From Chryseobacterium sp. (GTDB lineage Bacteria > Bacteroidota > Bacteroidia > Flavobacteriales > Weeksellaceae), in the NCBI GenBank assembly GCA_003248755.1, contig QFQW01000006.1:4993-68992 (forward strand): 64,000 bases of DNA. Direction: 5' to 3'. The notes below the pieces were generated by a model that was not told the DNA's origin, searched no databases, and saw only the letters and a list, made by a program, of their open reading frames with translations. Below are positions 1,715-48,660 of this stretch, piece after piece. Numbering within the stretch: the stretch's first letter is position 1; every line of letters starts with the position of its first letter. The translations under genes and the position numbers were made by a program.

Positions 1715-1757
1715 ATTTTTTTATTAATTTTAATAAAACATTTAAAAACACAAAAAG

Positions 1758-2186
1758 ATGGATTATCGTGCAGAATTACAAATTTTACTTGATGACGAGA
1801 ATATGAAATTCGAAACTTGGCTTTCTCGTTATCCAATCCAAGAATGTCCCAATTTGATTCTCGAATATAAAAAAGTTATGCAGAAATATGCCATTGAAAT
1901 TGGAGATTTCAAAAGCTTAGAGGAGTTACAAGAATTAGATGAATTGGCAGATAAAATCGAAAATTTCACTATTGATACATATGCTGCGAAACAGGAAAAA
2001 TTCAATGAAATAGAAGCTTTGAAAAGGAAAATAGAAGCCATGAAAGAATTGTTTTTAAAAAGTGATTCTAAAGAAATATCTCTTTCCGATGAAGTGCTGA
2101 CTGACTTACGAGAAATTGTGAAGTATTTAAAAAGCCATGGTTTATATGATGAAGAAATGTGGAAACCATTAAAACATCTGCTTTAA
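1758..2186 (+). CDS. Hypothetical protein (acidic, helical)
   Basis: Clean 142-aa ORF in the gap between flanking genes on the same strand. No motif recognised. Confidence 0.45.
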   Translation: MDYRAELQILLDDENMKFETWLSRYPIQECPNLILEYKKVMQKYAIEIGDFKSLEELQELDELADKIENFTIDTYAAKQEKFNEIEALKRKIEAMKELFLKSDSKEISLSDEVLTDLREIVKYLKSHGLYDEEMWKPLKHLL

Positions 2187-2201
2187 TATTACTAATTAAA
2201 A

Positions 2202-2894
2202 ATGAAGCAAAGTTTTTCCGAATCCCAAATTGTTTACGAAGATAATCATATGCTTGTCATCAATAAGAAGGCCGGACAGCTTGTTCAGGGCGATAAAACG
2301 GGTGACCTGTCTCTGCTGGAACTAATTAAGGATTTCATCAAAAAAAGAGATAATAAACCAGGCAATGTTTTCCTCGGTTTGGTTCACAGAATCGATAGGC
2401 CAACTTCCGGATTGGTGATTTACGCCAAAACTTCTAAAGCGCTTTCCAGGTTAACTCAAATGGTAAAAAACCGTGAAATCAAAAAAACGTATTGGGCGAT
2501 TGTCGGCAAAGAGATGATTCCAAATTCGCAGAGATTGATTCATTACCTCAAAAAGAATGAGAAAAATAATAAGGCAATTGTCTATCCCAAAGCAACTGAA
2601 GGTGCAAAAGAATCGATACTTACCTACAATTTAATCAAAACCTTAGACAATTATCTTCTATTGGAAGTCGATTTGGAAACAGGAAGACATCATCAGATTC
2701 GTGCTCAGCTTTCAAAAATTGGAATTCCAATCAAAGGTGATCTGAAATATGGTGCGCCACGTTCCAACTCCGATGGAGGAATTTCTCTTCACGCCAGGAA
2801 ATTGGAATTTGTACATCCGGTGACAAAAGAAAATGTTATTATAATCGCTCCTGTTCCGCAGAACGATGCAGTCTGGAAAGCTTGTGAAGAATAA
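2202..2894 (+). CDS. RluA-family 23S/tRNA pseudouridine synthase
   Basis: HRIDRPTSGLV catalytic-Asp motif and GRHHQIRAQL motif typical of the RluA family. Confidence 0.85.
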   Translation: MKQSFSESQIVYEDNHMLVINKKAGQLVQGDKTGDLSLLELIKDFIKKRDNKPGNVFLGLVHRIDRPTSGLVIYAKTSKALSRLTQMVKNREIKKTYWAIVGKEMIPNSQRLIHYLKKNEKNNKAIVYPKATEGAKESILTYNLIKTLDNYLLLEVDLETGRHHQIRAQLSKIGIPIKGDLKYGAPRSNSDGGISLHARKLEFVHPVTKENVIIIAPVPQNDAVWKACEE

Positions 2895-2900
2895 ATTAAT

Positions 2901-2932
2901 AAAAAAACCGAAAGGAATCTTTCGGTTTTTTT
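2901..2932. terminator. Bidirectional intrinsic terminator between convergent genes
   Basis: aaaaaaaccgaaag-gaat-ctttcggttttttt: 9-bp GC-containing stem flanked by an A-run and a T-run. Confidence 0.7.
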
Positions 2933-2937
2933 AGTTT

Positions 2938-5085: not shown

Positions 5086-5140
5086 AGTTTAGTTTGTAAT
5101 GGATTAGACTTCCAAAAACTTAATTTGTTACATTAATAAA

Positions 5141-7264
5141 CTATTGAGCTCTGTTTTTTTCCTCAAAATTGACATTTCTGTTGTTGGCTTTCACCTTTTG
5201 ATTTCCAAAATTGTAAGTCACACTGAAAGTCAATCTTCTTGCATCCCAATAATTATCAAAAGATTGTGTATTATCTTTAAAATAAACACTTCCTCTATAA
5301 CCAGATGTTTTGAAGATATCGTTTACGGAAAGATTCATCTGCAAGGCTTTTTCCATTAGACTCATTTTGATACCAGCATTTACACTATATCTGTTTTTGG
5401 TAGAATTGTTTCCTCCTTTGGAAGGTAAAGATTGCCAGTAATTAGCAAAGAAAAAAAATGTTTTTGCCTTATTCAGTTGAAAAGTATTGTTAGCCGAATA
5501 ATAGAATGATTGTCCGTTTCTCGCAATAGCATCGTACTTTGTTATCTGTGTATCACTGTAGCTGAGTGAAGTCGATAAATTGGTTTCCCAAATCTTGACA
5601 AACGTATCAGTATAATTAAGATTAAGACCATAAGTATCCTGATTGTAATAATTATGAAAAGTGCTTACAATACTAACGCCGTCAATGAATGTAATCTGGT
5701 CAAAATTGGCAAGACTTCTTTCATAATATAAACTTGCATTAAACTTACTTTTGAAAATATAATTGAATTCAAAATTATGATTGAATGAAGGCTGAAGACT
5801 TGGATTTCCAGCATAATAACTATTCGGGTTGGAATACCAACGGAACGGGTCCAAAGCTCGGAAGTAGGGTCTGTTTATCCTTCTCGAGTAATTGATGCTG
5901 AATTGATTATTATCATTCGCTTTGTAAGAAATATATGCTGTTGGAAATAACTTCCCATAATTATTTTCTGAACTGGATTGAGTTGTTGGAGAGAAGCCTT
6001 TTGTTTCTGCATATTCATAACGCAAACCAAATTTTGCCGACCATTTTTCTCCGAAATCTTTGCTTGCGCTGATATAGGCTGCATAGTTTTTCTCATCATA
6101 ATTGAAAAGATTACTTCTTTGTGGATCGATGACGTAATTGCTATTAGTAAAATTAAAATAACCTATGTCAGAATTATTGGAAAACTGGCTGTATTTCAAT
6201 CCGGTTTCCAATTGTATCTTTTTGAAATTAAGTGTTAAATCTCCCTGCCCGGAATAGATTTTATAATCAACAGATGAGAGATTTTTCACGATTTGTTCAG
6301 ATTGGTCAGCTAAATCAGTCGTTACAAAATTAACATTAGTCTCCGGAAGATTTCCATAATAATTGGCTCCAAAACTTAACTTATGCTCACCGAATTTTTG
6401 GTCATAATAGAGATTCAGCATTTGAGAAGTTGAGGTTGAGCGGTGTTTGGAATCTGTGTCAATATTTAATGTATTGATGTCATTCGTAAAATAGTGCGAA
6501 ACCGAATTGATATCCATATTAGAATGGCCTTTCGCAAAATCATAGATGAATCCGATATTTGCTTTTTCACTTAATGAGTAATCCAAGCTTGCGTTCACTC
6601 CCAATCCATCGTTCATATCACGTCTTTCATCTCTGCTGATGCTGGAATTTTCTCCAATGATTTTATAATTTTCGACTGACCTTTTCTCACTATCATAACC
6701 TCGAAATTTAACCGAGGATTTTAGTTTCTCATTTTGATAATTGAGACCAAGCGCGCCGCCAAAACCTCCATAAGTGGATTGTTGATAATAGGTATTAGTG
6801 TAACCGCTCCAGCCAAGATTCTGATTTTTTTTCAGAATGATATTGATGATTCCACTGTTTCCCTGAGCTTCATACTTTGCAGGCGGAGTTGTGATAACCT
6901 CGATTTTTGAGATGTTTTCTGAACGAAGATTTTTCAGATAGTTCATCAGTTCCAATCCCGAGAGATTCAGCATTCTGTCGTTGACCATTACGGAAACGCC
7001 ACTTTTACCTGCAATATTAATTAATCCTTGTTCTTCATCAACTTTCAGCAAAGGTGTATTGGCAAGAACCTCTGTTCCAGAACTTCCTTCCGAAACCATC
7101 GAATTCTGAACATTATAAACCAAACGGTCCACTTTTCTTTCGATGATTTTTTTCTTTCCATCCACCGTTACGGTTTCTATGTTTTGAACTTTTACAGTAT
7201 CCTGTGTTTGGGCAAAAGATAATGTACTAAATAATGCTGAGGCAAAAAGTATTGATTTCTTCAT
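5141..7264 (-). CDS. TonB-dependent-receptor-like outer-membrane beta-barrel protein, paralog 2
   Basis: Signal peptide ending SFAQ. Plug block NISKIEVITTPPAKYEAQGNSGIINIILKKN, barrel repeats and a basic C-terminal tail FGNQKVKANNRNVNFEEKNRAQ. Confidence 0.7.
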   Translation of the reverse strand: MKKSILFASALFSTLSFAQTQDTVKVQNIETVTVDGKKKIIERKVDRLVYNVQNSMVSEGSSGTEVLANTPLLKVDEEQGLINIAGKSGVSVMVNDRMLNLSGLELMNYLKNLRSENISKIEVITTPPAKYEAQGNSGIINIILKKNQNLGWSGYTNTYYQQSTYGGFGGALGLNYQNEKLKSSVKFRGYDSEKRSVENYKIIGENSSISRDERRDMNDGLGVNASLDYSLSEKANIGFIYDFAKGHSNMDINSVSHYFTNDINTLNIDTDSKHRSTSTSQMLNLYYDQKFGEHKLSFGANYYGNLPETNVNFVTTDLADQSEQIVKNLSSVDYKIYSGQGDLTLNFKKIQLETGLKYSQFSNNSDIGYFNFTNSNYVIDPQRSNLFNYDEKNYAAYISASKDFGEKWSAKFGLRYEYAETKGFSPTTQSSSENNYGKLFPTAYISYKANDNNQFSINYSRRINRPYFRALDPFRWYSNPNSYYAGNPSLQPSFNHNFEFNYIFKSKFNASLYYERSLANFDQITFIDGVSIVSTFHNYYNQDTYGLNLNYTDTFVKIWETNLSTSLSYSDTQITKYDAIARNGQSFYYSANNTFQLNKAKTFFFFANYWQSLPSKGGNNSTKNRYSVNAGIKMSLMEKALQMNLSVNDIFKTSGYRGSVYFKDNTQSFDNYWDARRLTFSVTYNFGNQKVKANNRNVNFEEKNRAQ

Positions 7265-7328: not shown

Positions 7329-9431
7329 TTAGTTCGCTCTGTCTTTTTCTTCGAAATTAATCTGCTTTTTGTTGATTTGTTTTTTCTTATTTCCGAAAGT
7401 ATAATTCACGCTCAAACGAAAACTTCTTCCATCCCAATAATTATTGAAATGCTGACTGTTATCTCTGAAATACATATCTCCACGGAATCTCTGAGCAAAA
7501 ATATTCGTCACCGTTGCATTGATTTGAAGTTGCTTTTCCATTAGAGAAACCTTGATTCCGGAATTCAGATTGGAAAAATTATGGAAATAAGAATTCACAT
7601 TTTTATAAGGTAAACTTTGGTCATAGTTTAGGAATAGAGAAACCGTTTTTGATTTATTTAAAATAAATGTATTGTTGATAGAATAGCTTACCGAAGTTCC
7701 TTTGGATGTTTCCGCACTGATATTGAAAACTTCTGAGTTTTGATAAGATGCGTTTGCAGAAATAGTCGCTTCCCAGAATTTGAAAAAAGTATCTGTGTAA
7801 GAAACATTAGCTCCATAAAAATTATTGTTATAGTAGTTCTGATAATCTCCATTTTGAGAAATACCATCCAAGTAACCGATTTGCCCAAAAGCATTAGTCA
7901 ATCTAAGATAATAAACGCTTGTCGAAAGCTTGTTGTTATATGTATAACCCAATTCATAATTATTAATGTAAGAAGGCGTCAACAAAGGGTTTCCTGATGA
8001 ATAAGAATATGGATTTTCATACCAGCAGAACGGATTCAAATTGCTCATACTTGGTCTGTTGATTCTTCTGGAATAGGACAAGCTGAAAACATTTTTATCC
8101 TCTTTATAAGAAACGTAAACCGAAGGAAACCATTGCGCATAAGAGAAATTATTCACAGAGCTTTTTACAACTGTATTTTCATATCGGATTCCAGCTTTTG
8201 TTTCCCAATGTTCTCCGAAATTTTTAGCAAAACTTCCGTAAACAGCATAATTCTCCTCGCGATAATTGAAAGTACTGCTTTTTTCATTATCAATAATGAA
8301 TTGATTGTTTTCTAAATCAAAGTATTTCAAATCTGCAGAGTTTCTGAATTGATTGAATTTAACACCGGTTTCAATCGTTCCAAATTTAAATGGCAATTCT
8401 AAGTCGCCCTGAACAGAGAAAATCTGAGGTGTAATTTTTGACAACGTTTTCACATCCTGAATTGTATTTTCAGGAAGAGTCAAAGTCGAGAAATTAACTT
8501 CGGTTTCGTTATTATTTTTGTAAAAATTACCGGCGAAACTCAATTTCTTTCCAAGTGAATCCAACTTCAAATCATAATAAGTACTGAAAGTATGAGTCGG
8601 TGATTTTTCCCTGTGAAAAGTATTGGTCAAAAGATTTTTTTCTGTCAAATCAGGACTGATGTTTCTCGTTGTGTTAAAGATATCCATTCCTGATTTTTCG
8701 TGTCCGAAAATATATTCCATTCCAACTTCTGAGTTTTTATTGATTTTGTAAGAAGCGTTCAAACTCGGTGTCAAATCCTGCCACATATCTTTTCGTGTAG
8801 ACTCACTATAATTCTGTGATTCTCCAAGTATAGTATATCTTTCATTAGAGCGTTTTGCACCATCAATGTAGCTGGTTTTTAAACTTAAACTAAGCTTTTC
8901 GGTTTGGTAATTAAGTGTTCCGTTGGTTGTTCCATTGAAGTAAGTTCTCTGTGTAATGCCAGTGCTGATATTGCCACTAAAACCAAGATTCGGATTTTTT
9001 TTCAGAATAATATTGATGAGCCCGCTGTTTCCTTGCGCTTCATATTTCGAAGGCGGTGTGGTAATCACTTCGATTTTTGAGATGTTTTCTGAACGAATCG
9101 ATTTCAGATAATTCAAAAGAGCAGCTCCTGAGAGATTCAGCATTTTTCCGTTAATCATCACATTTACGCTACTTTTTCCTGTGATAGAAATCGTTCCGAG
9201 ATTCTCATCCACTTTCAACATTGGAACATTGGCAAGAGTTTCGCCGGCATCCATTCCCTGAGATGCGATAGACGCATCTACATTGAAGACCAATCTGTCA
9301 GCTTTTCTCTCCAATAATTTTTTCTTCACAAGAATATTAACCTGTTCGATTTCTTTAAGGCTGTCTTTCTGAGTCTGAGCAAAAGTTGCAGTTGAAAGTA
9401 AGCTGGCGATAAATAGATATTTTAGTTTCAT
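7329..9431 (-). CDS. TonB-dependent-receptor-like outer-membrane beta-barrel protein, paralog 3 (tandem copy of paralog 2)
   Basis: Collinear with 5141-7264 (NISKIEVITTPPSKYEAQGNSGLINIILKKN; same C-terminal FGNKKKQINKKQINFEEKDRAN-type tail). Start moved to the internal ATG at 9431 (MKLKYLFIASLL...), which gives a normal signal peptide. Confidence 0.7.
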   Translation of the reverse strand: MKLKYLFIASLLSTATFAQTQKDSLKEIEQVNILVKKKLLERKADRLVFNVDASIASQGMDAGETLANVPMLKVDENLGTISITGKSSVNVMINGKMLNLSGAALLNYLKSIRSENISKIEVITTPPSKYEAQGNSGLINIILKKNPNLGFSGNISTGITQRTYFNGTTNGTLNYQTEKLSLSLKTSYIDGAKRSNERYTILGESQNYSESTRKDMWQDLTPSLNASYKINKNSEVGMEYIFGHEKSGMDIFNTTRNISPDLTEKNLLTNTFHREKSPTHTFSTYYDLKLDSLGKKLSFAGNFYKNNNETEVNFSTLTLPENTIQDVKTLSKITPQIFSVQGDLELPFKFGTIETGVKFNQFRNSADLKYFDLENNQFIIDNEKSSTFNYREENYAVYGSFAKNFGEHWETKAGIRYENTVVKSSVNNFSYAQWFPSVYVSYKEDKNVFSLSYSRRINRPSMSNLNPFCWYENPYSYSSGNPLLTPSYINNYELGYTYNNKLSTSVYYLRLTNAFGQIGYLDGISQNGDYQNYYNNNFYGANVSYTDTFFKFWEATISANASYQNSEVFNISAETSKGTSVSYSINNTFILNKSKTVSLFLNYDQSLPYKNVNSYFHNFSNLNSGIKVSLMEKQLQINATVTNIFAQRFRGDMYFRDNSQHFNNYWDGRSFRLSVNYTFGNKKKQINKKQINFEEKDRAN

Positions 9432-9608
9432 AAGTTTTATTTTAATCGTTGTAAAATCTTGATGCAAATGTATTTTCAGGACTTCCCTAATGAAATAGCG
9501 TTTAGATTTGATAAGGTTTTAATTCGACCAAACTATTTTCATCGATGAAAAAAGGGTGTTCATAGAATTTGGCGGTTCAGATGTTTTCACTGTCCGTATT
9601 TTTGGAAT

Positions 9609-14768: not shown

Positions 14769-15344
14769 ATGGAGTCGCTATCTTTACAGCAAATGTCCGA
14801 AAAAAAATCTGCATCGATTACGGAAGTCGTGAAAAATTACGGCTCTCAGCTTTTGCGCTTTATTAATTCTAAAGTGGCAAAGACGGAAGATGCAGAAGAT
14901 ATTCTTCAGGAAGTTTGGTTTCAAACCAGCAGATTGACCAATCTGGATGAACTGGAAAATGTCGGAGCCTGGTTATATTCGGTCACCAGAAACAAGATCA
15001 TCGATAGTTATCGGAAAAAGAAAACTGAATCACTGGAAGATTTTGTCTATCAGGACGAAGACGGCGAACTGAATGTGAAGGATATTCTTTTGGCTGATGA
15101 TACCAATAATCCGGAAATCGGTGTGTTCAAAGAAATGTTTTGGAATGAGTTAATGAAAGCTCTGGATGAATTACCGGAAAAACAAAAGCGTGTTTACATA
15201 CAAAACGAACTTGAGGATAAAACTCTGCAAGAAATTGCGGATGAAGAGGGCGAAAACATAAAAACAATAATCAGTAGAAAATCTTATGCTGTAAAACATT
15301 TGCGAAAAAAATTGCAGATACTTTACAACGATTTAAATGATTAA
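14769..15344 (+). CDS. ECF-type RNA polymerase sigma-70 factor
   Basis: Region 2 (DAEDILQEVWFQ..., WLYSVTRNKIIDSYRKK) and region 4 HTH (LPEKQKRVYIQNELEDKTLQEIADEEGENIKTIISRKSYAVKHLR). Confidence 0.8.
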   Translation: MESLSLQQMSEKKSASITEVVKNYGSQLLRFINSKVAKTEDAEDILQEVWFQTSRLTNLDELENVGAWLYSVTRNKIIDSYRKKKTESLEDFVYQDEDGELNVKDILLADDTNNPEIGVFKEMFWNELMKALDELPEKQKRVYIQNELEDKTLQEIADEEGENIKTIISRKSYAVKHLRKKLQILYNDLND

Positions 15345-15355
15345 TTATTAAAAAA

Positions 15356-15745
15356 ATGAAAAGAAATAGAAAGAAATTTTGGATGATTTTTCCTTGCGTG
15401 ATAGGTGCAGTGGGATTATTTATTTGGTTTTTCCAATGGCTTTGGAATATTCTATTACCCGATATTTTGGGAGTGAAAGCAATTAATTATTGGCAATCGG
15501 CTGGAATCTTATTGTTATCGAAAATCTTGTTTGGAGGTTTCAATGGTGCTAAAGAAAAGTTTAAAAGACGAAATGATTTTAATATTGGAATAGGAGATAG
15601 AAGAGAACATTGGAGGCAGAAATTTGAAACTCAATTTTGTGGAAGCGAAGAAGAACGTGAGAAGTTTAAGGAAATGTGGAAGCAAAGATTCGAATCTAAA
15701 TTCTGCAGACCAGAAGAATCTCGGCCAGAAGAAAATAAAATATAA
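15356..15745 (+). CDS. Small membrane protein, possible cognate anti-sigma factor
   Basis: Two predicted TM helices followed by a charged tail with a duplicated (K/R)FExxFCxxEE motif. Lies 11 nt after the ECF sigma gene. Confidence 0.45.
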   Translation: MKRNRKKFWMIFPCVIGAVGLFIWFFQWLWNILLPDILGVKAINYWQSAGILLLSKILFGGFNGAKEKFKRRNDFNIGIGDRREHWRQKFETQFCGSEEEREKFKEMWKQRFESKFCRPEESRPEENKI

Positions 15746-15776
15746 AAAAGTCTCACAAATTTGTGAGACTTTTTTA
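15744..15776. terminator. Bidirectional intrinsic terminator (end of the ECF pair and of the ABC-exporter operon)
   Basis: Perfect palindrome aaaaaagtctcacaa-a-ttgtgagactttttt. Confidence 0.75.
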
Positions 15777-15780
15777 TATT

Positions 15781-17997
15781 TTAACCGCCTAATTCTAATT
15801 GATTCTTTACAAGCTCAAAGTAGCTCCCTTTCATTTTTGTTAATTCTTGATGACTCCCAATTTCTACAATTTTACCATTATCCAGCACTACAATTTTATC
15901 CGCATTTTTAACCGTTGAAAGTCGATGAGCAATAATAATTACTGTTTTCTCTTTGAAAAAAAACTGCAAATTGTCATGAATGATTTTTTCATTTTCTGAA
16001 TCAAGAGCAGATGTAGCTTCATCGAAGAATAAAAATTGCGGATTTTTGTAAACTGCTCTCGCGATAAGAATTCTTTGTTTCTGCCCTCCTGATATGCCAT
16101 TACCGTCTGCTCCAATTTGAGTACTTAATTTAAGAGGAAGTGTACTTATAAAATCATTTAAATTAGCAATCTCTATCGCATAATTTAATTTTTGAAAATT
16201 AATATCTTCTTCACCAACGGCAATGTTTTTTGCAATTGTATCATTAAAAATAAAACCGTCTTGCATTACTGCGCCTATGTTTTTTCTCCATTCTCCCGAA
16301 TGTATATCCATAAAATTGGTTTTTCCTAAAGATATATTTCCCAAATCTGGTTCATAGAATTTTAGAAGTAATTTCATAAGGCTCGTTTTACCACTTCCGC
16401 TTGTTCCTACTATTGCCGTAATTTTATTTTTTGGAATAGTTAAAGAGATATTATCTAAAACTCTCATGTCGTTTCCAAAATAAGAAAACGATATTTCTTT
16501 AAGGTAGATATCTTCGGATTTGACTGCCGGTTCATTCTCTATATTTTTTCTCTCATCTTCGTTTTCTTTTTCGTAAATCTCATTTAGCCTTTCCAAGCTT
16601 ATTTTTGCATCTTGAGAACTTCTGATAAAATCAACTAGTTGGGAAAGCGGAATATTAAGCTGTCCAACAATAAATTGTATAGACAACATCTCTCCTAGTG
16701 TAATTTTATTATTTATAACTAGACTAGCGGAAATAAAAGTGATTAAAATATCTTTCAAATGGTTTAAAAAACTAGATCCTATGTTCTGCCATAGTTCTAC
16801 GTTTTGTAATTTTATTTGAATACGATATATTTTATTTTGAATTTTTTCCCAATCTGTTGTTTTCTGAGATTCAGCTCTGTTCAATTTGATTTCCTGCATT
16901 CCGGAAATAATTTCCATCGTCTTTGACCTTTCTTCTGCTTGTTGTTCAAACCTCATGTAATCTAGAATTTTTCTTTTCTTTGAAAAAAATAATAGCCACA
17001 AAGTGTATAGAATACTTCCAATAAAAAAGATTACAAACACCTGATAATTGTAATACAGCAAAATACTTCCAAACACAATGAAATGAATGAAGGAAAAAAA
17101 GGTATTTAGAGAACTTCCGGTAAGATAGGATTGCACTCTGTAATTATCATTCATCCTCTGTATCAAGTCTCCGGTAATTCTGGAATCGAAGAACGAAATA
17201 GGAAGTCTCATCATTTTTTTTAAAAAGTCAGAAACCAATACAATATTGATTCTATTGCTTAAATGAAGTAAAATTCTTGACCTGATTGCCTCAACGATAA
17301 TTTGTCCTAAAAACAATGCTAATTGAGCAAAAAGAATTGTGTAGATAAAATTTATATTTTTAGGTTTAATACCTTTATCCACAATGTTTTTTGTGAAAAA
17401 TGGAAAGAAAAAAGATATAATATTTTCTATCAGTAGAGCTAAAATAAGATATAGAAGTAGTGTTTTTTGCTTCTTTAGATATTTTATGAAACGAGAATAT
17501 GGATTCGTTTTTTTACAATTAAATCTTTGTTTCCCAAAATCGGAATTGGGTTCTAATAAAAGAATAATACCTTCTTCTGTATTTCCATTTGCAGTTTCAT
17601 TAATCCAATTTTTAATAAAATCACTATGACTATATTTTACTTTTCCCATCGCAGGGTCAGCCACATAGACTCTGTTTGGGTCGATTTTATATAATACCAC
17701 ATAATGGTAGTTTTTCCAAAAAACAATACTTGGCAGAGGTGCCTCCAATAAAGTTTCAAAACTAATTTTTGTTCCAAATGCATCAAACCCAATACTTTCT
17801 GCTGCTTTGGAAATATTATAAAGACTGCTTCCTTCACGGCTAGTTTTAGAAAGATTACGCAAATCCTGAATAGAAAGATGCTTTTTGTAATAAGCACTGA
17901 TGATTTTTAAACAAGTGGGGCCACAGTCTTTTCCATCAAATTGTTTGTAAAAAGGAAAGGGTCTAAGTCTATTTTTTATTCTTGAAATTAATTTCAT
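15781..17997 (-). CDS. Peptidase C39 domain-containing ABC transporter (double-glycine leader-cleaving bacteriocin/RiPP exporter)
   Basis: N-terminal C39 domain with an intact triad context (QFDGKDCGPTC; NYHYVVLY; VADPA). Six-TM ABC membrane domain. Walker A GTSGSGKTS, signature ISGGQKQR, Walker B LFFDEATSALD, H-loop IIIAHRL. Confidence 0.9.
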   Translation of the reverse strand: MKLISRIKNRLRPFPFYKQFDGKDCGPTCLKIISAYYKKHLSIQDLRNLSKTSREGSSLYNISKAAESIGFDAFGTKISFETLLEAPLPSIVFWKNYHYVVLYKIDPNRVYVADPAMGKVKYSHSDFIKNWINETANGNTEEGIILLLEPNSDFGKQRFNCKKTNPYSRFIKYLKKQKTLLLYLILALLIENIISFFFPFFTKNIVDKGIKPKNINFIYTILFAQLALFLGQIIVEAIRSRILLHLSNRINIVLVSDFLKKMMRLPISFFDSRITGDLIQRMNDNYRVQSYLTGSSLNTFFSFIHFIVFGSILLYYNYQVFVIFFIGSILYTLWLLFFSKKRKILDYMRFEQQAEERSKTMEIISGMQEIKLNRAESQKTTDWEKIQNKIYRIQIKLQNVELWQNIGSSFLNHLKDILITFISASLVINNKITLGEMLSIQFIVGQLNIPLSQLVDFIRSSQDAKISLERLNEIYEKENEDERKNIENEPAVKSEDIYLKEISFSYFGNDMRVLDNISLTIPKNKITAIVGTSGSGKTSLMKLLLKFYEPDLGNISLGKTNFMDIHSGEWRKNIGAVMQDGFIFNDTIAKNIAVGEEDINFQKLNYAIEIANLNDFISTLPLKLSTQIGADGNGISGGQKQRILIARAVYKNPQFLFFDEATSALDSENEKIIHDNLQFFFKEKTVIIIAHRLSTVKNADKIVVLDNGKIVEIGSHQELTKMKGSYFELVKNQLELGG

Positions 17998-18856
17998 CTA
18001 ATTCTTTTTGAACATCTTGGATATATATATCATCAAAAACCACTTGGTAATTATCATTATTTTTTATTCCATTTTTTATTAAATCGAATGCCTGATTGAT
18101 ATTGTCTCGATAATCATTAAAACGATTCATTTTTTTAAGAAGGAGTGCTTTGTAGTAATAGTTATCTGCTATTTTTGTAATACTATTTGCGAGATCGTAG
18201 TGTTTTAAAGCTTCCTCATTTTTTCCTAATTTATCCAGACATCTGGCTTTATATAATGCTACTTGGTATGGGAAAAAATTGTTCTCTCGGGTTGCTTCGT
18301 AAGTTTCTTTTATATTACGGTCAAACTCTTGTATCGCTTTTTCATATTGTTTGAGTTGCATATAATTAATCCCTTTCAAATAATGAAAATTATCGCCATT
18401 GGCTACCAAATTTGGCTGATGCTGCATGTGAGTTTCATATAGCTCTAATTTTTCTAAAGATTTTTTATAATCATGGTAAAAAAACAAAAGAACCCAGCCA
18501 TAATAGGCATTTGTAGCTGGATCTATTTTTGAGGCTTCATCCAATTTTTCAATCGCTTGAACCCAATAGCCATTTTTAGTATTTTGTACGGAAGAATGTC
18601 TTATCATCTCAGGTTTTATATTCTTGATATTATGAATTCCGTATTGCATCATTTCTTCGCCAATATCATCCATTCCGAAATAGCTTGACCAATATCCAAT
18701 TTCAAATATCTTTTCAGGAGATTTAATATCGATTGTGTCATTATATTTTTTGGAAATTTGGGCTAATCTATCAACTGCTTTTGGGGAAAGTTTCTGAGCA
18801 TTTGATAGAATATAAATTCCCAAAAAGAATAATACCGTTGCAATTTTTTTTATCAT
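17969..18856 (-). CDS. Secreted/periplasmic TPR-repeat protein
   Basis: Signal peptide (MIKKIATVLFFLGIYILSNAQ). TPR-like helical repeats (YLKGINYMQLKQYEKAIQEFDRNI; ALYKARCLDKLGKNEEALKHYDLA; YYKALLLKKMNRFNDY). The 3' end overlaps the ABC gene start by 29 nt. Confidence 0.6.
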   Translation of the reverse strand: MIKKIATVLFFLGIYILSNAQKLSPKAVDRLAQISKKYNDTIDIKSPEKIFEIGYWSSYFGMDDIGEEMMQYGIHNIKNIKPEMIRHSSVQNTKNGYWVQAIEKLDEASKIDPATNAYYGWVLLFFYHDYKKSLEKLELYETHMQHQPNLVANGDNFHYLKGINYMQLKQYEKAIQEFDRNIKETYEATRENNFFPYQVALYKARCLDKLGKNEEALKHYDLANSITKIADNYYYKALLLKKMNRFNDYRDNINQAFDLIKNGIKNNDNYQVVFDDIYIQDVQKELDEINFKNKK

Positions 18857-18866
18857 TTAATTGATT

Positions 18867-19325
18867 TTATTTGGGTAGAATGTCAGTAATCTCGCCATTT
18901 TGTATTTTAAAAATATAATACTGGTGAAAGTTTTGTATTGCTTGATTTTCTGCAATAGGTTTCCATATTTTCAAAGATTTCACAAGATTCAAAATGTCTT
19001 GTTTTATTTTATCATTTAGTTCACAGTATTTATAATCAAACCCGAAACTTTCGAGAGAGTAATTTCCGGTTTCTCCTTTACAATTGACCCAGAAAGTAAT
19101 ATGCAAGATTCCGGTATTATTTTCTAAATGAGAATAGTCTTCTGCGTGATATTTTGCCTTAAAAATTGATTTTACCGCATAAAAATCTGGAACATAATTT
19201 CCTGAATTTTGCAGATAATAATATGGATATACTTTTTTATCCCCACATAACTGTAGATCTTGGCTTTGTTGACCAAAACTTTTTAAGCTAATTAAAAAGA
19301 ACAAGAAAATTATACTTCTAAACAT
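18867..19325 (-). CDS. Secreted hypothetical protein (152 aa)
   Basis: Signal peptide MFRSIIFLFFLISLKSFGQ. The central GILHITFWVNCKGETGNYSLE block is vaguely TonB-C/beta-sandwich-like. Overlaps the upstream gene by 16 nt and lies 10 nt from the next gene. Confidence 0.5.
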   Translation of the reverse strand: MFRSIIFLFFLISLKSFGQQSQDLQLCGDKKVYPYYYLQNSGNYVPDFYAVKSIFKAKYHAEDYSHLENNTGILHITFWVNCKGETGNYSLESFGFDYKYCELNDKIKQDILNLVKSLKIWKPIAENQAIQNFHQYYIFKIQNGEITDILPK

Positions 19326-20497
19326 TGTGGATTATTTTTCAGAAAAGTAGAAAAATTAAAATTATAAGTTTGATTTTCCATGTTAAAATTTTCTACAATT
19401 GGATAGTATTTGTTATATATTTCAATCCACTTGTCTTTTATTTTGTAAAATATTTCCAATCCAATCTCTGTGAAAATATCTTTTGATCTGTTATTTACAA
19501 ATGAAATATCTCTAGGAATTCTATTAAAAAGCTCTGATACAGGAATAGACGTATAAAACAATTGTAGATCATAATGACATCTTTGAATATAAAGCAATAT
19601 TCTTCCAAGGGCCTCTAATCTTTGTATTTCAGAAAAATCATTGTTTTCCAAAGATGCGTCTAAACATATAAAACTTGCATAATATGTATATAAAGCATGA
19701 AACCAAATCTCAACGCTCCTGTTTTGTTCAGTTTTATATGGCATAGCCAAACTCTGTATTGTTGTATTCTCATCATCTATCAGGAAAAAAAGTTTTTTAT
19801 CAAAAAGCATCGTATACATTAAGACATGACCAGTCTGATGCGCTATGTCATCTACAAAAAAAACTTCGTCATAATTTTCTTGATAAGCATTATAAAAAGA
19901 AATCCCAAGAGCTTTTTTATATGCAAAAGAATTTGTGTTGTATGGTAAAGTATCAAAGACAATGCATTTTGGACAATATTTATCTATCAATACAAAATAT
20001 TCAGGCAGATTTTTTTTGATTAATTGATAAGCTCTTGTTAAATGATGTATATTTTCTTTACTGATTTTGGAAATTTCATACTCATATTCACCAAAACATT
20101 GATCCAGTAATTTGTCTTTGTAAACTAATAGTTCAATATTAGTATCTTCTATAATTGTAGGGTGCTCCGTAATTGTTTCAATATCATTACGCCGGTTATA
20201 TTTGTGGTTGTCTATCCATCCAATGTTTCTGATATATGTTTTTTCAAAATTACTCGTGACTATTTTCTTATTGCCAGTCCAATCTGCATACAGAATAGTT
20301 TCTATCAAATCTGGATCTTTTGTAATATTATCATTGTTGCTAAAATACAGGTTGATAAAAGGATTTGAATAAATAGATTCATCCTCAAAATCTATATGAT
20401 CAAAAATATCTTCATTATTTTTATATAATAGCATTTTTATATTGTCATTCCATTCTTGACGTCCTTGTTCTAATAAAGGAAGAATTGTTGGTAACAT
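19310..20497 (-). CDS. Orphan 395-aa cytoplasmic protein with an H-x3-H motif; candidate peptide-modifying enzyme
   Basis: No signal peptide. DDIAHQTGHVLMY (H220/H224, nt 19826-19840) plus WFHALY (H267). It is the first gene after the precursor peptide. Confidence 0.5.
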   Translation of the reverse strand: MLPTILPLLEQGRQEWNDNIKMLLYKNNEDIFDHIDFEDESIYSNPFINLYFSNNDNITKDPDLIETILYADWTGNKKIVTSNFEKTYIRNIGWIDNHKYNRRNDIETITEHPTIIEDTNIELLVYKDKLLDQCFGEYEYEISKISKENIHHLTRAYQLIKKNLPEYFVLIDKYCPKCIVFDTLPYNTNSFAYKKALGISFYNAYQENYDEVFFVDDIAHQTGHVLMYTMLFDKKLFFLIDDENTTIQSLAMPYKTEQNRSVEIWFHALYTYYASFICLDASLENNDFSEIQRLEALGRILLYIQRCHYDLQLFYTSIPVSELFNRIPRDISFVNNRSKDIFTEIGLEIFYKIKDKWIEIYNKYYPIVENFNMENQTYNFNFSTFLKNNPQCLEV

Positions 20498-20520
20498 TTA
20501 TTATTTGTGTTTTTAGTTTA

Positions 20521-20553
20521 TAAAAAGAGAGAGAGAAATAATCCTCTCTCTCA
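20521..20553 (-). terminator. Intrinsic terminator / attenuator between the precursor peptide and the downstream genes
   Basis: The minus strand reads gagagagag-gattattt-ctctctctc-ttttta. It begins 8 nt after the peptide stop and ends about 24 nt before the next ATG. Confidence 0.6.
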
Positions 20554-20559
20554 AAATTA

Positions 20560-20706
20560 TTATAGTGAAGTAGATGCGCTACAAGAATTATCACCAGGAT
20601 GACAATCTTGAGCTGGAGTTTTTCCTCCTACAACTTGCGTTAATAATGTAGTTACTTCTGTAACGTTCGCTTTCTTTTTGAAAGATTCTAAATTTAATTT
20701 TTTCAT
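20560..20706 (-). CDS. 48-aa double-glycine-leader precursor peptide (bacteriocin/RiPP-like)
   Basis: MKKLNLESFKKKANVTEVTTLLTQVVGG | KTPAQDCHPGDNSCSASTSL. The MKKLxLE start and the hydrophobic -4/-7 positions before GG fit C39 substrates. Lies in the same operon as the C39 ABC exporter. Start set at the internal ATG 20706. Confidence 0.65.
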   Translation of the reverse strand: MKKLNLESFKKKANVTEVTTLLTQVVGGKTPAQDCHPGDNSCSASTSL

Positions 20707-20827
20707 TTTGATAATTTTAAATATTTTGCCTACTCTTTTATGATGCTTTTCGGCGTTCGCATTTTTTGATTGCAATCGTATATAAAAACCTAAAATATTT
20801 GCAACTATTTTTTGGTTTTGACATTCC

Positions 20828-22984
20828 TTATAATGAATTATTTCCTTCTTCGACTCTTCCTTTATCAGATTCCTGTTTGTTGGTTTCTTTACTTTTTTTG
20901 TTGCCGAAAGATTTTGATATAGATAAGGTTATACTTCTTATGTCTCTTCTGTTATTTCTATAAATCTCTCCGATATTAGAGTAATTTACAGTTTTCCAAG
21001 TCAAAAAATTAAAAGGATCTGTTGTTTCTAATCTAATTTTAACCCCTTGTTTATCAAAATTTCTTGATAAACTGAATGTAAATCTATTTGAGGCTTCTGT
21101 CAATTTATAATTAACTAAAGAAAAATTATTGTAAAAAGAAAAATATGCCTCAGAATTAATACCAGTATTCAGGATGTTTTTATAATAAACTTTCAAATCA
21201 AAATTACTAAACGTTGAGTTTGGAACATTCAAATCATTTTTTCTATTAATCTCAGAATTGTCATTAAAAGTAAATGAAGGATTAAAATTCACACTTAATT
21301 TATCCTTAATTATTGATTTATTTATGTTTAGACCTACAAAAAACTGGTAATTATTCCCTCTGTAATTTATTGTTTGGATTACTAGTTGATTATTTTGATA
21401 ATAGTATGAGGATCTCATCACATCATTATTTATCTTGTATGCAAGTGTCAGATTATAATTTTTTCTAAAAGAATAATTTAATCTATAGATTTCTTGTTTA
21501 TAAACCCCTAGGCTTGGGTTTCCTTTATGAATGTAATTATCATTAATGTAATAAATGAAAGGGTTTATTTCGTTTGCATAAGGTCTTATAATTGATTTTT
21601 TATAACTTAAGGCAATTGTGTTTTTGTCATTTGCTTTGTATGATACTATTATGGTAGGGAGCCAATTGTTGTAATCCATTTTATTCACTTCATCAGTTAA
21701 TATTTGAATGCCGTCGATATTTGTAAATTCACTCCTTAATCCAGCTTTAATAGTTAGTTTTTTAAAATATGTTTTGCTAATTGTTGTGTAAATTCCCAAT
21801 ATATTTTCTTTATACTTAAAAATATTGGTCAAATTACTATTTGGAATATATTCCATACCATTCCAAGAATTAACATAATAAGGGCTATGTTGACTTAAAA
21901 AATTATTTTTAAATCCTGTTTCTATAGAGTATCCAGAGTTTCCTAATGATTGAGAATAATCAACCTTAAGAGAATAATTTCTTCTTTCTTCATTAATAGA
22001 ATTATTGTAAGCATTTATAAGTGTGTTGTCATAGGAATTATAATTACCATCTCCATTACTTTTTCTATATACCCAGTCTAAATTAATTTCTAAATTTCGA
22101 TTAGATTTTTTGCCTTGAAATTTGTAAAAAAGATTATTAGAAAATAACACGTTTTTATAATTATCATCTTGATTCGTAAAATATTCGTGGGAATTATCTG
22201 AATAGTTTTTACTGAATAAAAAAGTTTTAGGATTTGAATAATTCAATTCTAAAATCCCGCCAATACTATTTTCAGGATTAATCTCATATTCAAAAGAATT
22301 ATTAATACCTATATAATATTCTTCAGTTTTTCTATCTGTATCAATGTATTGTTCCTCAAGAGCATTATAAATCTTATTAATATTATATTCGTAGGATTTT
22401 CTTCTATCAACCCCGATGTCAAAAGTTGAACTTTGGCTATATCTACTACGATGATAATTAAGATATGCCATAATCTCTTGACTATTTTTCCTTGTCTGTT
22501 TATCTGTAAATGAAATACTACCTTTCCAGCCGTCATCTTCCATTTTCTTCAAAATCAAATCAATCACGGCGCCATCATTTGCATCATATTTTGAAGAAGG
22601 CGTTGTGATAATTTCTATTTTTATCAGATTATCTGCCGGCATAGATTTCAGGTAGCCATACAAATCTTTGCCAAGTAATATAGATTTCCTGCCATTAATA
22701 TAAACTACAGCTGTTTGAAATCCCATTACACTTATACCATTGTCGTCATCTACCATCAATAATGGTGTCTGCTGAAGTACATTCCAAGCATTATTACCAA
22801 TAACCAAACCCGTATTTTCTACATTAAAAACGAACCTGTCAGATTTAGTCTCCAAAACCGGTTTCTTACCAGTAATGACTACTTCTTGGATTTGTTTTTC
22901 CGCAATTATTTTCAAAGAGTCATGCTTTTGGGCAAAAGCATTCCCAATGATAAAAATGAATACTAGATATTTAATCTTTTTCAT
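20828..22984 (-). CDS. TonB-dependent-receptor-like outer-membrane beta-barrel protein, paralog 4
   Basis: Signal peptide and plug block NLIKIEIITTPSSKYDANDGAVIDLILKK. Same architecture and basic C-terminal tail as 5141-7264 and 7329-9431, but with a much more Asn/Ile/Tyr-rich (AT-rich) composition. Confidence 0.7.
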   Translation of the reverse strand: MKKIKYLVFIFIIGNAFAQKHDSLKIIAEKQIQEVVITGKKPVLETKSDRFVFNVENTGLVIGNNAWNVLQQTPLLMVDDDNGISVMGFQTAVVYINGRKSILLGKDLYGYLKSMPADNLIKIEIITTPSSKYDANDGAVIDLILKKMEDDGWKGSISFTDKQTRKNSQEIMAYLNYHRSRYSQSSTFDIGVDRRKSYEYNINKIYNALEEQYIDTDRKTEEYYIGINNSFEYEINPENSIGGILELNYSNPKTFLFSKNYSDNSHEYFTNQDDNYKNVLFSNNLFYKFQGKKSNRNLEINLDWVYRKSNGDGNYNSYDNTLINAYNNSINEERRNYSLKVDYSQSLGNSGYSIETGFKNNFLSQHSPYYVNSWNGMEYIPNSNLTNIFKYKENILGIYTTISKTYFKKLTIKAGLRSEFTNIDGIQILTDEVNKMDYNNWLPTIIVSYKANDKNTIALSYKKSIIRPYANEINPFIYYINDNYIHKGNPSLGVYKQEIYRLNYSFRKNYNLTLAYKINNDVMRSSYYYQNNQLVIQTINYRGNNYQFFVGLNINKSIIKDKLSVNFNPSFTFNDNSEINRKNDLNVPNSTFSNFDLKVYYKNILNTGINSEAYFSFYNNFSLVNYKLTEASNRFTFSLSRNFDKQGVKIRLETTDPFNFLTWKTVNYSNIGEIYRNNRRDIRSITLSISKSFGNKKSKETNKQESDKGRVEEGNNSL

Positions 22985-23462: not shown

Positions 23463-23493
23463 TTGGCATTGACTGGAATTTTCCTTAAATTTG
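23463..23493 (+). promoter_or_regulatory. Candidate promoter of the TPR/AraC regulator gene
   Basis: TTG (23463-23465), 20-nt spacer, then TAAATTTG (23486-23493), 17 nt upstream of ATG 23511. Confidence 0.35.
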
Positions 23494-23510
23494 TTTTTCT
23501 AAACACACAA

Positions 23511-25247
23511 ATGAAATATTTCTTATCAATTTTGTTGATTTTTTCAATGTTTTTTAATGGTTTTGCTAATGATAGCCTGCTGATTTCTTATTCAAATATT
23601 CAAAAGGAAATCCAAAAATTGGACAAAGAACCTAAAAAACAATTCAAATGGATTCTCCTACTGATTGAAAAAGCTAAAAAAGAGAATAATTTAGAAAAAC
23701 TTAACCAAGGCTATTCCTTCGCCAGTACTTATACCCGAGGTAATATTCAAATGAAATATGGTGATAGTCTCTTAAGTACTGCTTTACAGATCAATAATCC
23801 AGATATTATTGGAGATTGCTATCTATCAAAGGGTATGATTTATACAAATGAAGAAAAGTATCCTTTGGCATTGGATTATTTTATGAAAGGTTATAATTAT
23901 ATTAAAATTAATAACGACGAATATTTAATTCATAACGCAGAATATCAGATTGCTCAAATAAAAATTTATTTAGGAGAATATCAAGAAGCAAGAAAAATCC
24001 TAAAAAGAACCCTGTCTTTTTTTAGAAAGAATCATACAAAAATCAAGAACACAGATTATGCATTGTATTACATATATTCATTGATAAGTTATATAGATGC
24101 TAATAGTAAGTTAGGGAATTTCTCCGAAAATGTCGCATTGATAAAAGAGGGTTTGCACTTTACCCGCAACACAAATTATAACAGTTATTATTCCTATTTT
24201 GTATCGTTGATAGGTACAGATTTCTATTATCAAAAAAAATATAATTTAGCTATTGAAAAACTTAACTCTGCATTAGAATTAAGCAATGATAACTGGAAGC
24301 ATTTGACAGAGAATTATTATTTGGGGCTGTCCTACTGGTACAAAGGTGACAAAGAATTTGCGTTGCCATATTTAAAAAAATTGGACGCAGAATATAACTC
24401 CAACGGAAAAATAGATCCACAGTTTCGCCCCGCTTTCGAAGCTTTACTAAATTATTATCGTGATAAAGATGATATTAAAAAACAGCTTAATTATATAAAT
24501 AAACTAATAAAATTAGATAAGATCTACGAGAAAGATTATAAGTACTTATATGCAGCTTTAAAAAAAGAATATGATACTGAAAATTTAAAAAAGCAAAAAG
24601 CATTCTTGGAAAAATCGTTAATTAATGAGAAAGATAATAATTTTTTGATAAAATTTATTTTAGTAATCGTTTCAGGAGTCCTTTCTTATATAGTATATTC
24701 CTTATATCAAAGACATAAATATTACAAAATACTTTATCTTCAATTTATAAGTAATGAAAATAAGCAAAACCTTACGGAAGAAGATAAATATATTATTCCC
24801 TATGTTTCGGATAATATTGATATTAAAGTTTCAAATCACATTGCAGAGAATTATGATTCGTTGGATTTGAATCCAAATCTTGTGAAGGATATGCTTTTGT
24901 ATTTGTCGGATTTTGAAGCAAAAAAAGGGTTTCTTGATAAGGACATTACCCTAACTAAAATGGCTTCACAATTTGGTACCAATGTTTCTTACTTATCCAA
25001 AGTTATTAATTTTTACAAACAAGAAAATTTCCTTAGTTATATTAATACACTTAGATTGAATTATACTCTTGAATTATGGCAAAAAGATCCTCTCACTCGA
25101 TACTATAGAATTAGTGAAATTTCTAATATGGTAGGATTTAAAACAGTTCAAAGCTTTGCCAAAAACTTTAGAGAGAAATATAAAATATCTCCCAAATATT
25201 TTTTGACAAATCTTAATGAAAATAAAAAAGTAGATAAAATGAGTTAG
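23511..25247 (+). CDS. Transmembrane one-component regulator: N-terminal signal/anchor, TPR-like sensor region, TM helix, C-terminal AraC-type HTH
   Basis: MKYFLSILLIFSMFFNGFA signal. TPR-like repeats. TM helix FLIKFILVIVSGVLSYIVYSLY (about nt 24643-24708). AraC HTH (LTKMASQFGTNVSYLSKVIN...EISNMVGFKTVQSFAKNFREKYKISP). Confidence 0.75.
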   Translation: MKYFLSILLIFSMFFNGFANDSLLISYSNIQKEIQKLDKEPKKQFKWILLLIEKAKKENNLEKLNQGYSFASTYTRGNIQMKYGDSLLSTALQINNPDIIGDCYLSKGMIYTNEEKYPLALDYFMKGYNYIKINNDEYLIHNAEYQIAQIKIYLGEYQEARKILKRTLSFFRKNHTKIKNTDYALYYIYSLISYIDANSKLGNFSENVALIKEGLHFTRNTNYNSYYSYFVSLIGTDFYYQKKYNLAIEKLNSALELSNDNWKHLTENYYLGLSYWYKGDKEFALPYLKKLDAEYNSNGKIDPQFRPAFEALLNYYRDKDDIKKQLNYINKLIKLDKIYEKDYKYLYAALKKEYDTENLKKQKAFLEKSLINEKDNNFLIKFILVIVSGVLSYIVYSLYQRHKYYKILYLQFISNENKQNLTEEDKYIIPYVSDNIDIKVSNHIAENYDSLDLNPNLVKDMLLYLSDFEAKKGFLDKDITLTKMASQFGTNVSYLSKVINFYKQENFLSYINTLRLNYTLELWQKDPLTRYYRISEISNMVGFKTVQSFAKNFREKYKISPKYFLTNLNENKKVDKMS

Positions 25248-48538: not shown

Positions 48539-48660
48539 TTCTTAATATCGATAGTTTCCAAAGATAAAATTTTTTTTGAAATGGTAAATAGAGACGAGAT
48601 TCTAGACGAAAATATGAGGTTTTTCTTTTGACAAAACTAAAATTTTATGACAAATCCCAT

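Follow-up and report, generated by a model that had tools for sequence, protein, structure and literature searches.

A five-gene peptide operon in a Chryseobacterium genome

We analyzed a 64-kb stretch of DNA (the window) from a Chryseobacterium sp. assembly (GCA_003248755.1, contig QFQW01000006.1), in which five adjacent minus-strand genes encode a 48-amino-acid (aa) peptide with a double-glycine (GG) leader, a 395-aa protein with a paired-histidine motif, proteins of 152 and 295 aa, and a 738-aa ATP-binding cassette (ABC) exporter. A first-pass annotation had described this layout, and the coordinates confirm it: the genes for the 395- and 152-aa proteins overlap by 16 nucleotides (nt), those for the 152- and 295-aa proteins are separated by a 10-nt gap, and those for the 295- and 738-aa proteins overlap by 29 nt. 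The terminator-like hairpin and the perfect bidirectional terminator that it reported were likewise recovered. The operon comprises the following features:

20560-20706, minus strand: precursor peptide gene, a 48-aa open reading frame (ORF)
20527-20552, minus strand: hairpin and U-run between the precursor and enzyme genes
19310-20497, minus strand: enzyme gene, 395 aa, cytoplasmic, with an HQxGH motif
18867-19325, minus strand: 152-aa secreted or lipoprotein-type protein with two conserved Cys
17969-18856, minus strand: 295-aa secreted tetratricopeptide repeat (TPR) protein
15781-17997, minus strand: 738-aa C39-peptidase ABC exporter
15737-15782, both strands: perfect palindromic bidirectional terminator at the operon end

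The hairpin that follows the precursor gene has an 11-bp GAGAG/CTCTC stem (-17.6 kcal/mol, z = -4.1) with a U-run after it, and an equivalent GAGAG...CTCTC hairpin is present in two related loci, L001 and L002. It is probably a leaky terminator that would set the ratio of precursor to enzyme transcripts, in the manner of an attenuator. Since the gene set, the precursor ORF, and the hairpin all recur in related genomes, the operon is more than a chance arrangement. The terminator folds at -26.1 kcal/mol on either strand (z of about -11) and closes both the operon and a convergent extracytoplasmic function (ECF) sigma factor unit. This unit, on the plus strand, has the bidirectional terminator in common with the operon and includes an ECF-type sigma factor gene (14769-15344; Sigma70_r2 and r4) and a gene for a 129-aa protein (15356-15745) with a hydrophobic N terminus, a possible anti-sigma factor.

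Precursors with a common leader and an invariant Cys-His pair

The window precursor consists of a 28-aa double-glycine leader, MKKLNLESFKKKANVTEVTTLLTQVVGG, followed by a 20-aa core, KTPAQDCHPGDNSCSASTSL, which contains two Cys. The leader closes with TTLLTQVVGG and shows the hallmarks of its type, namely the GG end and hydrophobic residues at positions -4, -7, and -12. Pfam and NCBIfam searches returned no family for the 48-aa peptide.

A pattern scan provided 60 related loci, one genome per species, in which ORFs were clustered and representatives annotated. All 60 came from Bacteroidota, spanning Flavobacteriia, Sphingobacteriia, Cytophagia, Chitinophagia, and Saprospiraceae. When the window was included, 54 of 61 loci carried GG-leader precursors, 76 in total with one to six per locus and all on the enzyme's strand, which supports the earlier description of a peptide operon, here one for peptide maturation and export. 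The leaders follow the pattern xxKLSLxALKxxAExxxSxELLxxIxGG, with I/V at -4 in 71 of 74, L/M at -7 in 69 of 74, and E at -9 in 47 of 74, and the cores begin with x4-Cys-His. Of 86 ORFs found by a search with the leader only, 76 had Cys-His among core residues 1-12; the remaining ten either were spurious or encoded other GG peptides at different places in the loci. Across the 74 unique cores, Cys was core residue 5 in 55, the residue preceding it was Asp (32), Ser (11), Gly (10), or Glu (10), and the sequence after His was hypervariable. Cys35-His36 of the window precursor is the putative modification site.

A profile search with the precursor family retrieved 577 further proteins, all "hypothetical" and none with a name or Pfam domain; GG-x4/5-CH was present in all 120 that were listed. 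Three loci reached from precursors alone (in Tenacibaculum maritimum, Mariniflexile, and a Flavobacterium) all encoded an HQxxH protein of the 395-aa family, a TPR protein, and a C39-ABC exporter. Orthologues of the window precursor were found in L001-L003, which together with the window form the window clade. Synonymous changes in the leader codons of this clade were at least as numerous as non-synonymous ones, and its cores are only 11-22 aa long, with CHPG(D/E)xxC or CHPGEC. The first-pass annotation had made its proposal hinge on the peptide ORF being conserved and on homologues of the operon genes not being widespread in the absence of GG peptides. Both points held, given the orthologues and the family-wide leader and Cys-His pair on the one hand and the same-strand precursors on the other.

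That annotation had also offered a disulfide-type class II bacteriocin as one of its two readings. Stated in full, the product would be an unmodified, at most disulfide-bonded class II-type bacteriocin, and the 395-aa protein would be an immunity or chaperone-like dead zincin that binds the peptide, for instance via metal coordination by Cys-His. In its favor, class II bacteriocins typically have a GG leader and a C39-ABC exporter, 18 related loci contain CPBP-type genes, a kind of gene often associated with self-protection against bacteriocins, and the two Cys of the window core could simply form a disulfide. Yet 47 of the 74 unique cores and 94 of the 120 further precursors listed contain only one Cys, which means that the precursor family cannot be built around a disulfide, and a conserved metallo-enzyme gene is always adjacent. 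A disulfide-type bacteriocin does not explain the family, and we regard this reading as a whole as improbable; the enzyme, considered next, bears on its second part.

The 395-aa protein resembles a family of peptide oxygenases

The 395-aa protein of the window has an identical counterpart, annotated as hypothetical, in a metagenome-assembled genome of a Chryseobacterium sp. and matched nothing in Pfam or NCBIfam. A word-indexed search found 243 relatives, and an exhaustive profile search found about 730 clusters (50% identity), of which the best 150 were listed and all belonged to the same family. UniRef labels a few members "HEXXH motif domain-containing protein", so a link to HExxH enzymes was already latent in the databases.

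The window motif reads H220-Q-T-G-H224. Alignment of 39 relatives revealed an invariant FF(V/I)DDIAHQxGH block, invariant R260, R299, Y303, C307, and D310, and a near-invariant H267. DDIAHQxGH was present in 60 of the 72 family ORFs of the loci, the other 12 being fragments or degenerate or variant second copies. Intact members carried HQTGH (43), HQCGH (12), HQSGH (3), HQKGH (1), or HQGGH (1), and more divergent members keep HQGSH. Relative to HExxH, both His are thus kept and the Glu is replaced by Gln in every intact member.

An AlphaFold2 model built from the 39-relative alignment was confident, with a predicted local distance difference test score (pLDDT) of 89.1 and a predicted template modeling score (pTM) of 0.91. 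In a Foldseek search of the PDB it matched 8S5F, the HExxH domain of ChlBH (E 1.3e-8 to 3.7e-8, probability 1.0, template modeling score [TM] 0.51-0.63), at 14% sequence identity; at a pLDDT of 89, the model therefore has the zincin-like fold that characterizes the alpha-ketoglutarate-dependent (alpha-KG) HExxH oxygenases. The second match was 22ob, "Crystal structure of SjiH-Ni" (E 7.8e-6, TM 0.56, 10% identity). Only these two were significant, the next match having an E value of 0.45 and the matches at that level being zincin proteases that include the botulinum and anthrax metalloproteases.

Sequence profiles gave a fainter signal in the same direction. The first-pass annotation had suggested a run against TIGR04267, the NCBIfam model of the alpha-KG-HExxH enzymes, there named aKG-HExxH-type peptide beta-hydroxylase (InterPro IPR026337). 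The window protein itself had no match at E <= 0.1; sub-threshold matches were obtained for 6 of 39 and 3 of 10 relatives (best E 0.0045), in the correct register from the motif helix onwards. The motif of the family is HQxGH or HQGSH in place of HExxH, and the genomic setting is the one expected of these enzymes, since precursors lie near the enzyme gene in the 54 loci and the reverse check succeeded in three of three. Because the modeled fold is that of the oxygenases and the weak TIGR04267 matches are in register, we take the 395-aa protein to be a remote relative, a divergent branch of a known kind of enzyme and not necessarily a new class. The protein had been called an orphan HxxxH protein in an operon with no class-defining enzyme. 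The motif is indeed there and Pfam and NCBIfam indeed recognize no such enzyme, but "orphan" and "no recognizable enzyme" overstated the case in view of the oxygenase fold. In the same way, the idea of a new peptide class with this protein as maturase survives in its second half, as it is the best maturase candidate.

Second copies of the enzyme gene are found at L031 2634-3770, L033 9464-10603, L037 9480-10619, L039 9901-11034, L042 9472-10635, and L044 9438-10583. They look like pseudo-enzymes and occur only beside an intact copy, with a precursor gene between the two. These paralogues lose most or all of H220, Q221, H224, H267, and Y272 together and keep R260, R299 (K in one), and D310. The joint loss of H220, H224, and H267 suggests that the three His form one functional, metal-binding unit; they probably hold a metal, most likely iron, and R260 and R299 may bind a co-substrate. 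In all six loci with an intact enzyme and a degenerate paralogue, the cores carry two Cys-His motifs (e.g., ..DCHTDNCH..), and degenerate second copies are confined to loci with such cores.

Zinc peptidases are classically inactivated by a Glu-to-Gln change in HExxH, and the invariance of this Gln throughout the 395-aa family fits a dead zincin that accompanies an unmodified bacteriocin. Against that view, about 730 clusters show no variation in the His residues or in two Arg, copies without the His occur only beside an intact one, and the best structural matches are oxygenases, not peptidases. An immunity role sits poorly with a protein that has no signal sequence, as a protective factor would be expected in the envelope. 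A live peptidase that trims the precursor or its leader hydrolytically at the zincin-like site is highly improbable. The fold and the weak matches to botulinum and anthrax metalloproteases would permit it, and the HExxH enzyme PflC hydrolyzes truncated substrates in a metal-dependent manner (PMC12636437). However, every member has Gln where the general-base Glu would be, which argues against a hydrolytic role, the intact C39 domain of the exporter already provides for leader removal, and the peptidase matches have E values above 0.4 versus 1e-8 for the oxygenase.

Export and partner proteins

The gene families that accompany the enzyme in the 60 loci differ widely in frequency:

C39-ABC exporter: 42 of 60 loci
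Secreted TPR protein of about 270 aa (family of the window 295-aa protein): 39 of 60 loci
HlyD-family protein, nearly always right after the exporter: 33 of 60 loci
CPBP/Rce1-like membrane protein: 18 of 60 loci
152-aa protein family: 15 of 60 loci
Secreted metallo-beta-lactamase (MBL)-fold protein: 10 of 60 loci
TPR-AraC regulator: 8 of 60 loci
Another secreted protein of unknown family: 7 of 60 loci
TonB-dependent-receptor-like barrel: 5 of 60 loci

The window exporter contains Peptidase_C39 (E 1.6e-33), ABC_membrane (1.9e-32), and ABC_tran (1.5e-28) domains in Pfam. The oxyanion Gln19 and the catalytic Cys25, His98, and Asp114 of the C39 domain are present, as are the Walker A, signature, Walker B, and H-loop motifs of the ATPase, so the catalytic Cys/His/Asp contexts are intact as previously claimed. 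It missed the NCBIfam subfamily cut-offs (TIGR03796, 469 of 853 bits; TIGR01193, 424 of 524; TIGR01846, 441 of 726) and is a C39-ABC superfamily member that belongs to none of these named subfamilies. Homologues that accompany the enzyme in the related loci are 44-74% identical to it. The closest complete relative, L002, encodes a second C39-ABC exporter (1555-5107), 47% identical to that of the window, after a 451-aa protein and just upstream of its barrel gene; this exporter is absent from the window and may belong to a second, different peptide cluster.

A tblastn search with the family's own HlyD partner found no HlyD in the window, and four other ORFs of 400-445 aa that were checked as candidates carry unrelated Pfam domains. 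A tripartite type I secretion system with HlyD encoded beside the exporter is thus not what the window contains. The lack of HlyD, remarked on in the first pass, is real for the window but is a peculiarity of its clade, as 33 related loci encode one. The CPBP, MBL-fold, and other accessory families of the relatives were also not found in the window.

The 295-aa protein matches TPR_2 in Pfam (E 3e-8), and its family usually follows the enzyme gene directly; a search against PDB sequences gave nothing meaningful. The 152-aa protein has no Pfam or NCBIfam family, and its profile likewise gave nothing meaningful against PDB sequences. Members of both families have signal, lipoprotein, or membrane-anchor N termini and would therefore act outside the cytoplasm, in line with the previous description of two periplasmic proteins. 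The three middle genes had been considered unassignable; two of them can now be linked to an oxygenase fold (395 aa) and a TPR_2 match (295 aa), and the 152-aa protein has no assigned family. They had also been treated as a trio, which the frequencies listed above contradict: neither the TPR nor the 152-aa family is obligatory.

The AlphaFold2 model of the 152-aa protein was of low confidence (pLDDT 53). Its weak Foldseek matches (E 0.05-1, from this poor model) were enriched in TonB, HasB, and TolA C-terminal domains, and one Pfam match was to TonB_C (E 0.11). A TonB/TolA C-terminal-like fold is possible, as a lead only.

In different lineages, different additional genes lie between the enzyme/TPR gene and the exporter. 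They encode the MBL-fold protein of 490 aa (L050-L053, L057-L060, L011, and L020), a 390-aa protein of no known family (L030, L036, L046, L049, L057, and L060), an aspartyl-protease-like protein (L008, L014, and L015), or an amidohydrolase (L062 8906-10228). The 488-, 391-, and 401-aa representatives of these inserted families have signal-like N termini. Such lineage-varying inserts suggest lineage-specific processing of the peptide in the envelope.

Upstream features and the window clade

Three further features lie upstream of the precursor gene:

20727-20763, minus strand: Rfam RF02914 (DUF805b motif) match
20828-22984, minus strand: 718-aa outer-membrane beta-barrel protein, TonB-dependent-receptor-like, directly upstream of the peptide gene
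23463-25247, plus strand: 594-aa TPR-AraC protein, divergently placed

The 718-aa barrel matches OMP_b-brl_3 in Pfam (E 7.6e-54), and members of its family are found immediately upstream of the enzyme gene in L001-L003, L039, and L044. The window clade has this barrel upstream and is without HlyD and CPBP. Three tandem barrel paralogues of 715, 707, and 712 aa are encoded 11 kb away (2938-5085, 5141-7264, and 7329-9467, all on the minus strand), the middle one (5141-7264) matching both OMP_b-brl_3 and TonB_dep_Rec_b-barrel.

The 594-aa protein matches HTH_18, HTH_AraC, and TPR families in Pfam. Its topology, with a signal-like N terminus followed by TPR repeats, a central hydrophobic stretch at about residues 405-425, and an AraC-type helix-turn-helix at the C terminus, fits a one-component transmembrane sensor with an extracytoplasmic TPR domain, which makes it a candidate regulator of the operon. 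Homologues adjoin the enzyme gene in 8 related loci and, by tblastn, in L001.

For the window clade, and perhaps L039 and L044, the short product could be a metallophore or signal and not a toxin. The TPR and 152-aa proteins would then handle the peptide, the barrel would take it up or pass it, and the TPR-AraC protein would sense it. The cores of this clade are short and patterned on Cys, His, and Asp or Glu, such a barrel sits immediately upstream of either the precursor or the enzyme gene in five loci that represent three distant lineages (Chryseobacterium/Epilithonimonas-like, Mucilaginibacter, and Aureivirga), HlyD and CPBP genes are missing, the 152-aa protein weakly resembles TonB/TolA C-terminal domains, and the TPR-AraC neighbor recurs. 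All of this is contextual, however; the model of the 152-aa protein has low confidence and yields no significant match, most family members resemble hypervariable bacteriocins with multi-copy precursors, and no metal-responsive regulator was identified. We consider such a role unlikely. It concerns what the product does and is compatible with the biosynthesis proposed below.

The RF02914 match scored 45.3 bits against a gathering score of 35.6, was the sole such match in the window, and stops 21 nt before the precursor ATG. The DUF805b motif, an orphan cis-regulatory family in Rfam, was found just 5' of precursor ORFs in 9 of the 10 relatives' loci that were scanned. A regular-expression search placed it at 16 sites, 12 of these lying no more than 120 nt upstream of a precursor that had been detected. 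Only 11 of 75 precursors were preceded by the motif in a relaxed form. Individual sites are L001 7659-7693, L002 7631-7665, L013 7570-7602, L016 4027-4059, L018 3430-3465, L019 7649-7681, L024 3682-3714, L031 2058-2092, L039 9329-9363, and L062 about 5946-5978. The GTAGG box of the motif lies 22-30 nt ahead of the ATG, and the outermost stem pair covaries (U:A, A:U, G:C). Folding of 20727-20763 gave no stable structure (z of about 0), and because of this we make no claim for a structured, riboswitch-like RNA; the element may be a promoter/operator or a protein-bound 5' leader. An RNA-family scan detected no tRNA or other RNA gene near the operon apart from DUF805b. A Flavo-1 small RNA (Rfam RF01705) occurs elsewhere in the window (48657-48732, plus strand, 84 bits) and in L019 (5969-6054, minus strand, 60 bits), and as far as can be told is unrelated to the operon.

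A proposed pathway for Cys-His modification and export

We propose, with a probability of roughly 60%, that the locus is an operon for a ribosomally made, modified, and exported peptide that undergoes leader-guided oxidative modification at its Cys-His pair. The 48-aa precursor would be transcribed in excess, as the hairpin would pass only some transcripts into the translationally coupled genes behind it. The cytoplasmic 395-aa enzyme would recognize the conserved leader and oxidize the invariant Cys-His near the start of the core. The C39-ABC transporter, whose domains and catalytic residues are in place, would cut after Gly-Gly and export the 20-aa core. Outside the cytoplasm, where their signal peptides would direct them, the TPR and 152-aa proteins might serve as binding, hand-over, or self-protection factors. 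As the window clade has a barrel and no HlyD, passage across the outer membrane or re-uptake could, speculatively, go through the TonB-dependent-receptor-like barrel.

The likeliest single chemistry is beta-hydroxylation of His, possibly also of the preceding Asp, as in ChlBH. Characterized relatives hydroxylate His and Asp, which makes this, by analogy, the most probable individual reaction, though at odds well short of even. A serious alternative is that the invariant Cys takes part, through an oxidation or a cross-link. It is conserved as strictly as the His, and the putative site has three His, an arrangement typical of thiol-directed iron enzymes, so that a reaction at Cys is a real possibility. 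More radically, the HQxxH proteins could be a distinct clade that performs a new Cys-His transformation beyond plain beta-hydroxylation, candidates being a Cys-S-to-imidazole cross-link within the peptide or some other oxidation of the thiol by three-His iron. We hold this to be possible but doubtful; if true, it would amount to a novel RiPP class (RiPPs being peptides made on ribosomes and modified after translation) that is widely distributed in Bacteroidota, with about 730 clusters of the enzyme and more than 570 precursors.

Several points weigh against oxidative modification by this enzyme. A profile search of PDB sequences with the enzyme family found nothing even at E <= 10, and the relatives that match TIGR04267.2 score 11.8-16.5 bits where its cut-off is 40. 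With a motif that always has Gln, catalysis may differ from that of the characterized members or be absent. The metal and co-substrate ligands are assigned from residue conservation, and the modification at Cys-His is itself something we infer. The roles given to the TPR protein, the 152-aa protein, and the barrel are speculative proposals, and the window core could, as noted, form a disulfide.

As for the role of the products, most relatives have long, hypervariable, often amphipathic cores and multi-copy precursor genes; together with the CPBP genes, these features make the products of most relatives look like bacteriocins. The combination of a Cys/His/Asp peptide, a barrel, and a TonB-C-terminal-like protein in the window clade could also indicate metal binding or signaling.

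These results establish the operon as real and conserved in Bacteroidota and reduce the earlier claim of a new class. What emerges is a large, unnamed, phylum-specific peptide family with a sequence-divergent branch of the alpha-KG-HExxH enzymes, and a literature search found no paper describing a Bacteroidota HQxxH enzyme/precursor family. Because the family escapes the TIGR04267 hidden Markov model, mining pipelines built on TIGR04267/IPR026337 or on class-defining enzymes would mostly miss it. With its fixed spacing from the leader, the invariant Cys-His offers a specific site for experiments and, along with the Glu-to-Gln change, may mean new chemistry. Peptide natural products of Bacteroidota are under-explored; judging by the hypervariable cores and the CPBP-type genes, soil, freshwater, marine, and fish-pathogen genera such as Tenacibaculum and Flavobacterium may hold a store of narrow-spectrum antimicrobials.

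Comparison with known systems

The alpha-KG-HExxH enzymes, represented here by ChlBH (PDB 8S5F), BpmH/BipH, PflC/PosC, and PesO, are Fe/alpha-KG oxygenases with a zincin-like fold that hydroxylate His, Asp, Phe, Gln, and Pro in RiPPs (PMC12636437, PMC13060819). One of them also cleaves the backbone oxidatively and, without a leader, hydrolytically (PMC12636437). They were recognized only in 2024, and the field's authors state that their reactions are not yet predictable (PMC13060819). Another report describes a related HExxH scaffold that uses a pterin in place of alpha-KG, and it cites the ChlBH study in terms which imply that alpha-KG is bound there by positively charged residues (PMC12614342). 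The 395-aa protein has in common with these enzymes the overall predicted fold, two His arranged as HxxxH on a helix, conserved Arg that could hold a co-substrate, and a gene that adjoins RiPP precursor genes. Their known substrates include His and Asp (PMC12636437, PMC13060819), residues that are present in the D-C-H site of the precursors. In contrast, the 395-aa family has HQxGH and never HExxH, falls below the TIGR04267 cut-off or has no match, stands alone without a radical-SAM or MNIO partner, would act on GG-leader peptides exported by a C39-ABC transporter, has precursors with an invariant Cys beside the His, and was found only in Bacteroidota, where it is known from sequence and model. 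By the model's own criteria, it is not a TIGR04267 member.

SjiH (PDB 22ob, released 2026-02) was the second and only other significant structural match; it has no sequence-level match to the 395-aa family, and a search of the available literature found no paper on it. Lanthipeptide, radical-SAM, YcaO, ATP-grasp, methyltransferase, and MNIO families were all absent from the five operon proteins in Pfam and NCBIfam (E <= 0.1).

The sulfoxide synthases EgtB and OvoA and cysteine dioxygenase are three-His non-heme iron enzymes that act on thiols, and EgtB and OvoA join Cys and His partners. Three conserved His that behave as an apparent unit and adjacent Cys and His in the precursor recall these enzymes. 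Their folds are DinB/FGE or cupin, unlike the zincin-like fold here, and there is no sequence or structure match, so the likeness is one of mechanistic analogy only. Another sulfoxide-forming enzyme, CoiH, was judged unrelated.

Class II bacteriocins and bacteroidetocins resemble the family in their ELLxxIxGG-type leader and C39-ABC exporter with intact Cys/His/Asp, and, among the relatives, in the HlyD partner (33 loci) and CPBP-type genes (18 loci). They differ from it in that here a metallo-enzyme gene is obligatory alongside the precursors, Cys-His is invariant and its spacing from the cleavage site fixed, the usual partners include a secreted TPR protein, and most cores have a single Cys and are not disulfide peptides. 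The family as a whole is probably not one of disulfide bacteriocins, and the tripartite type I system is incomplete in the window. By analogy, then, the system would work like an alpha-KG-HExxH RiPP pathway joined to the export module of a class II bacteriocin.

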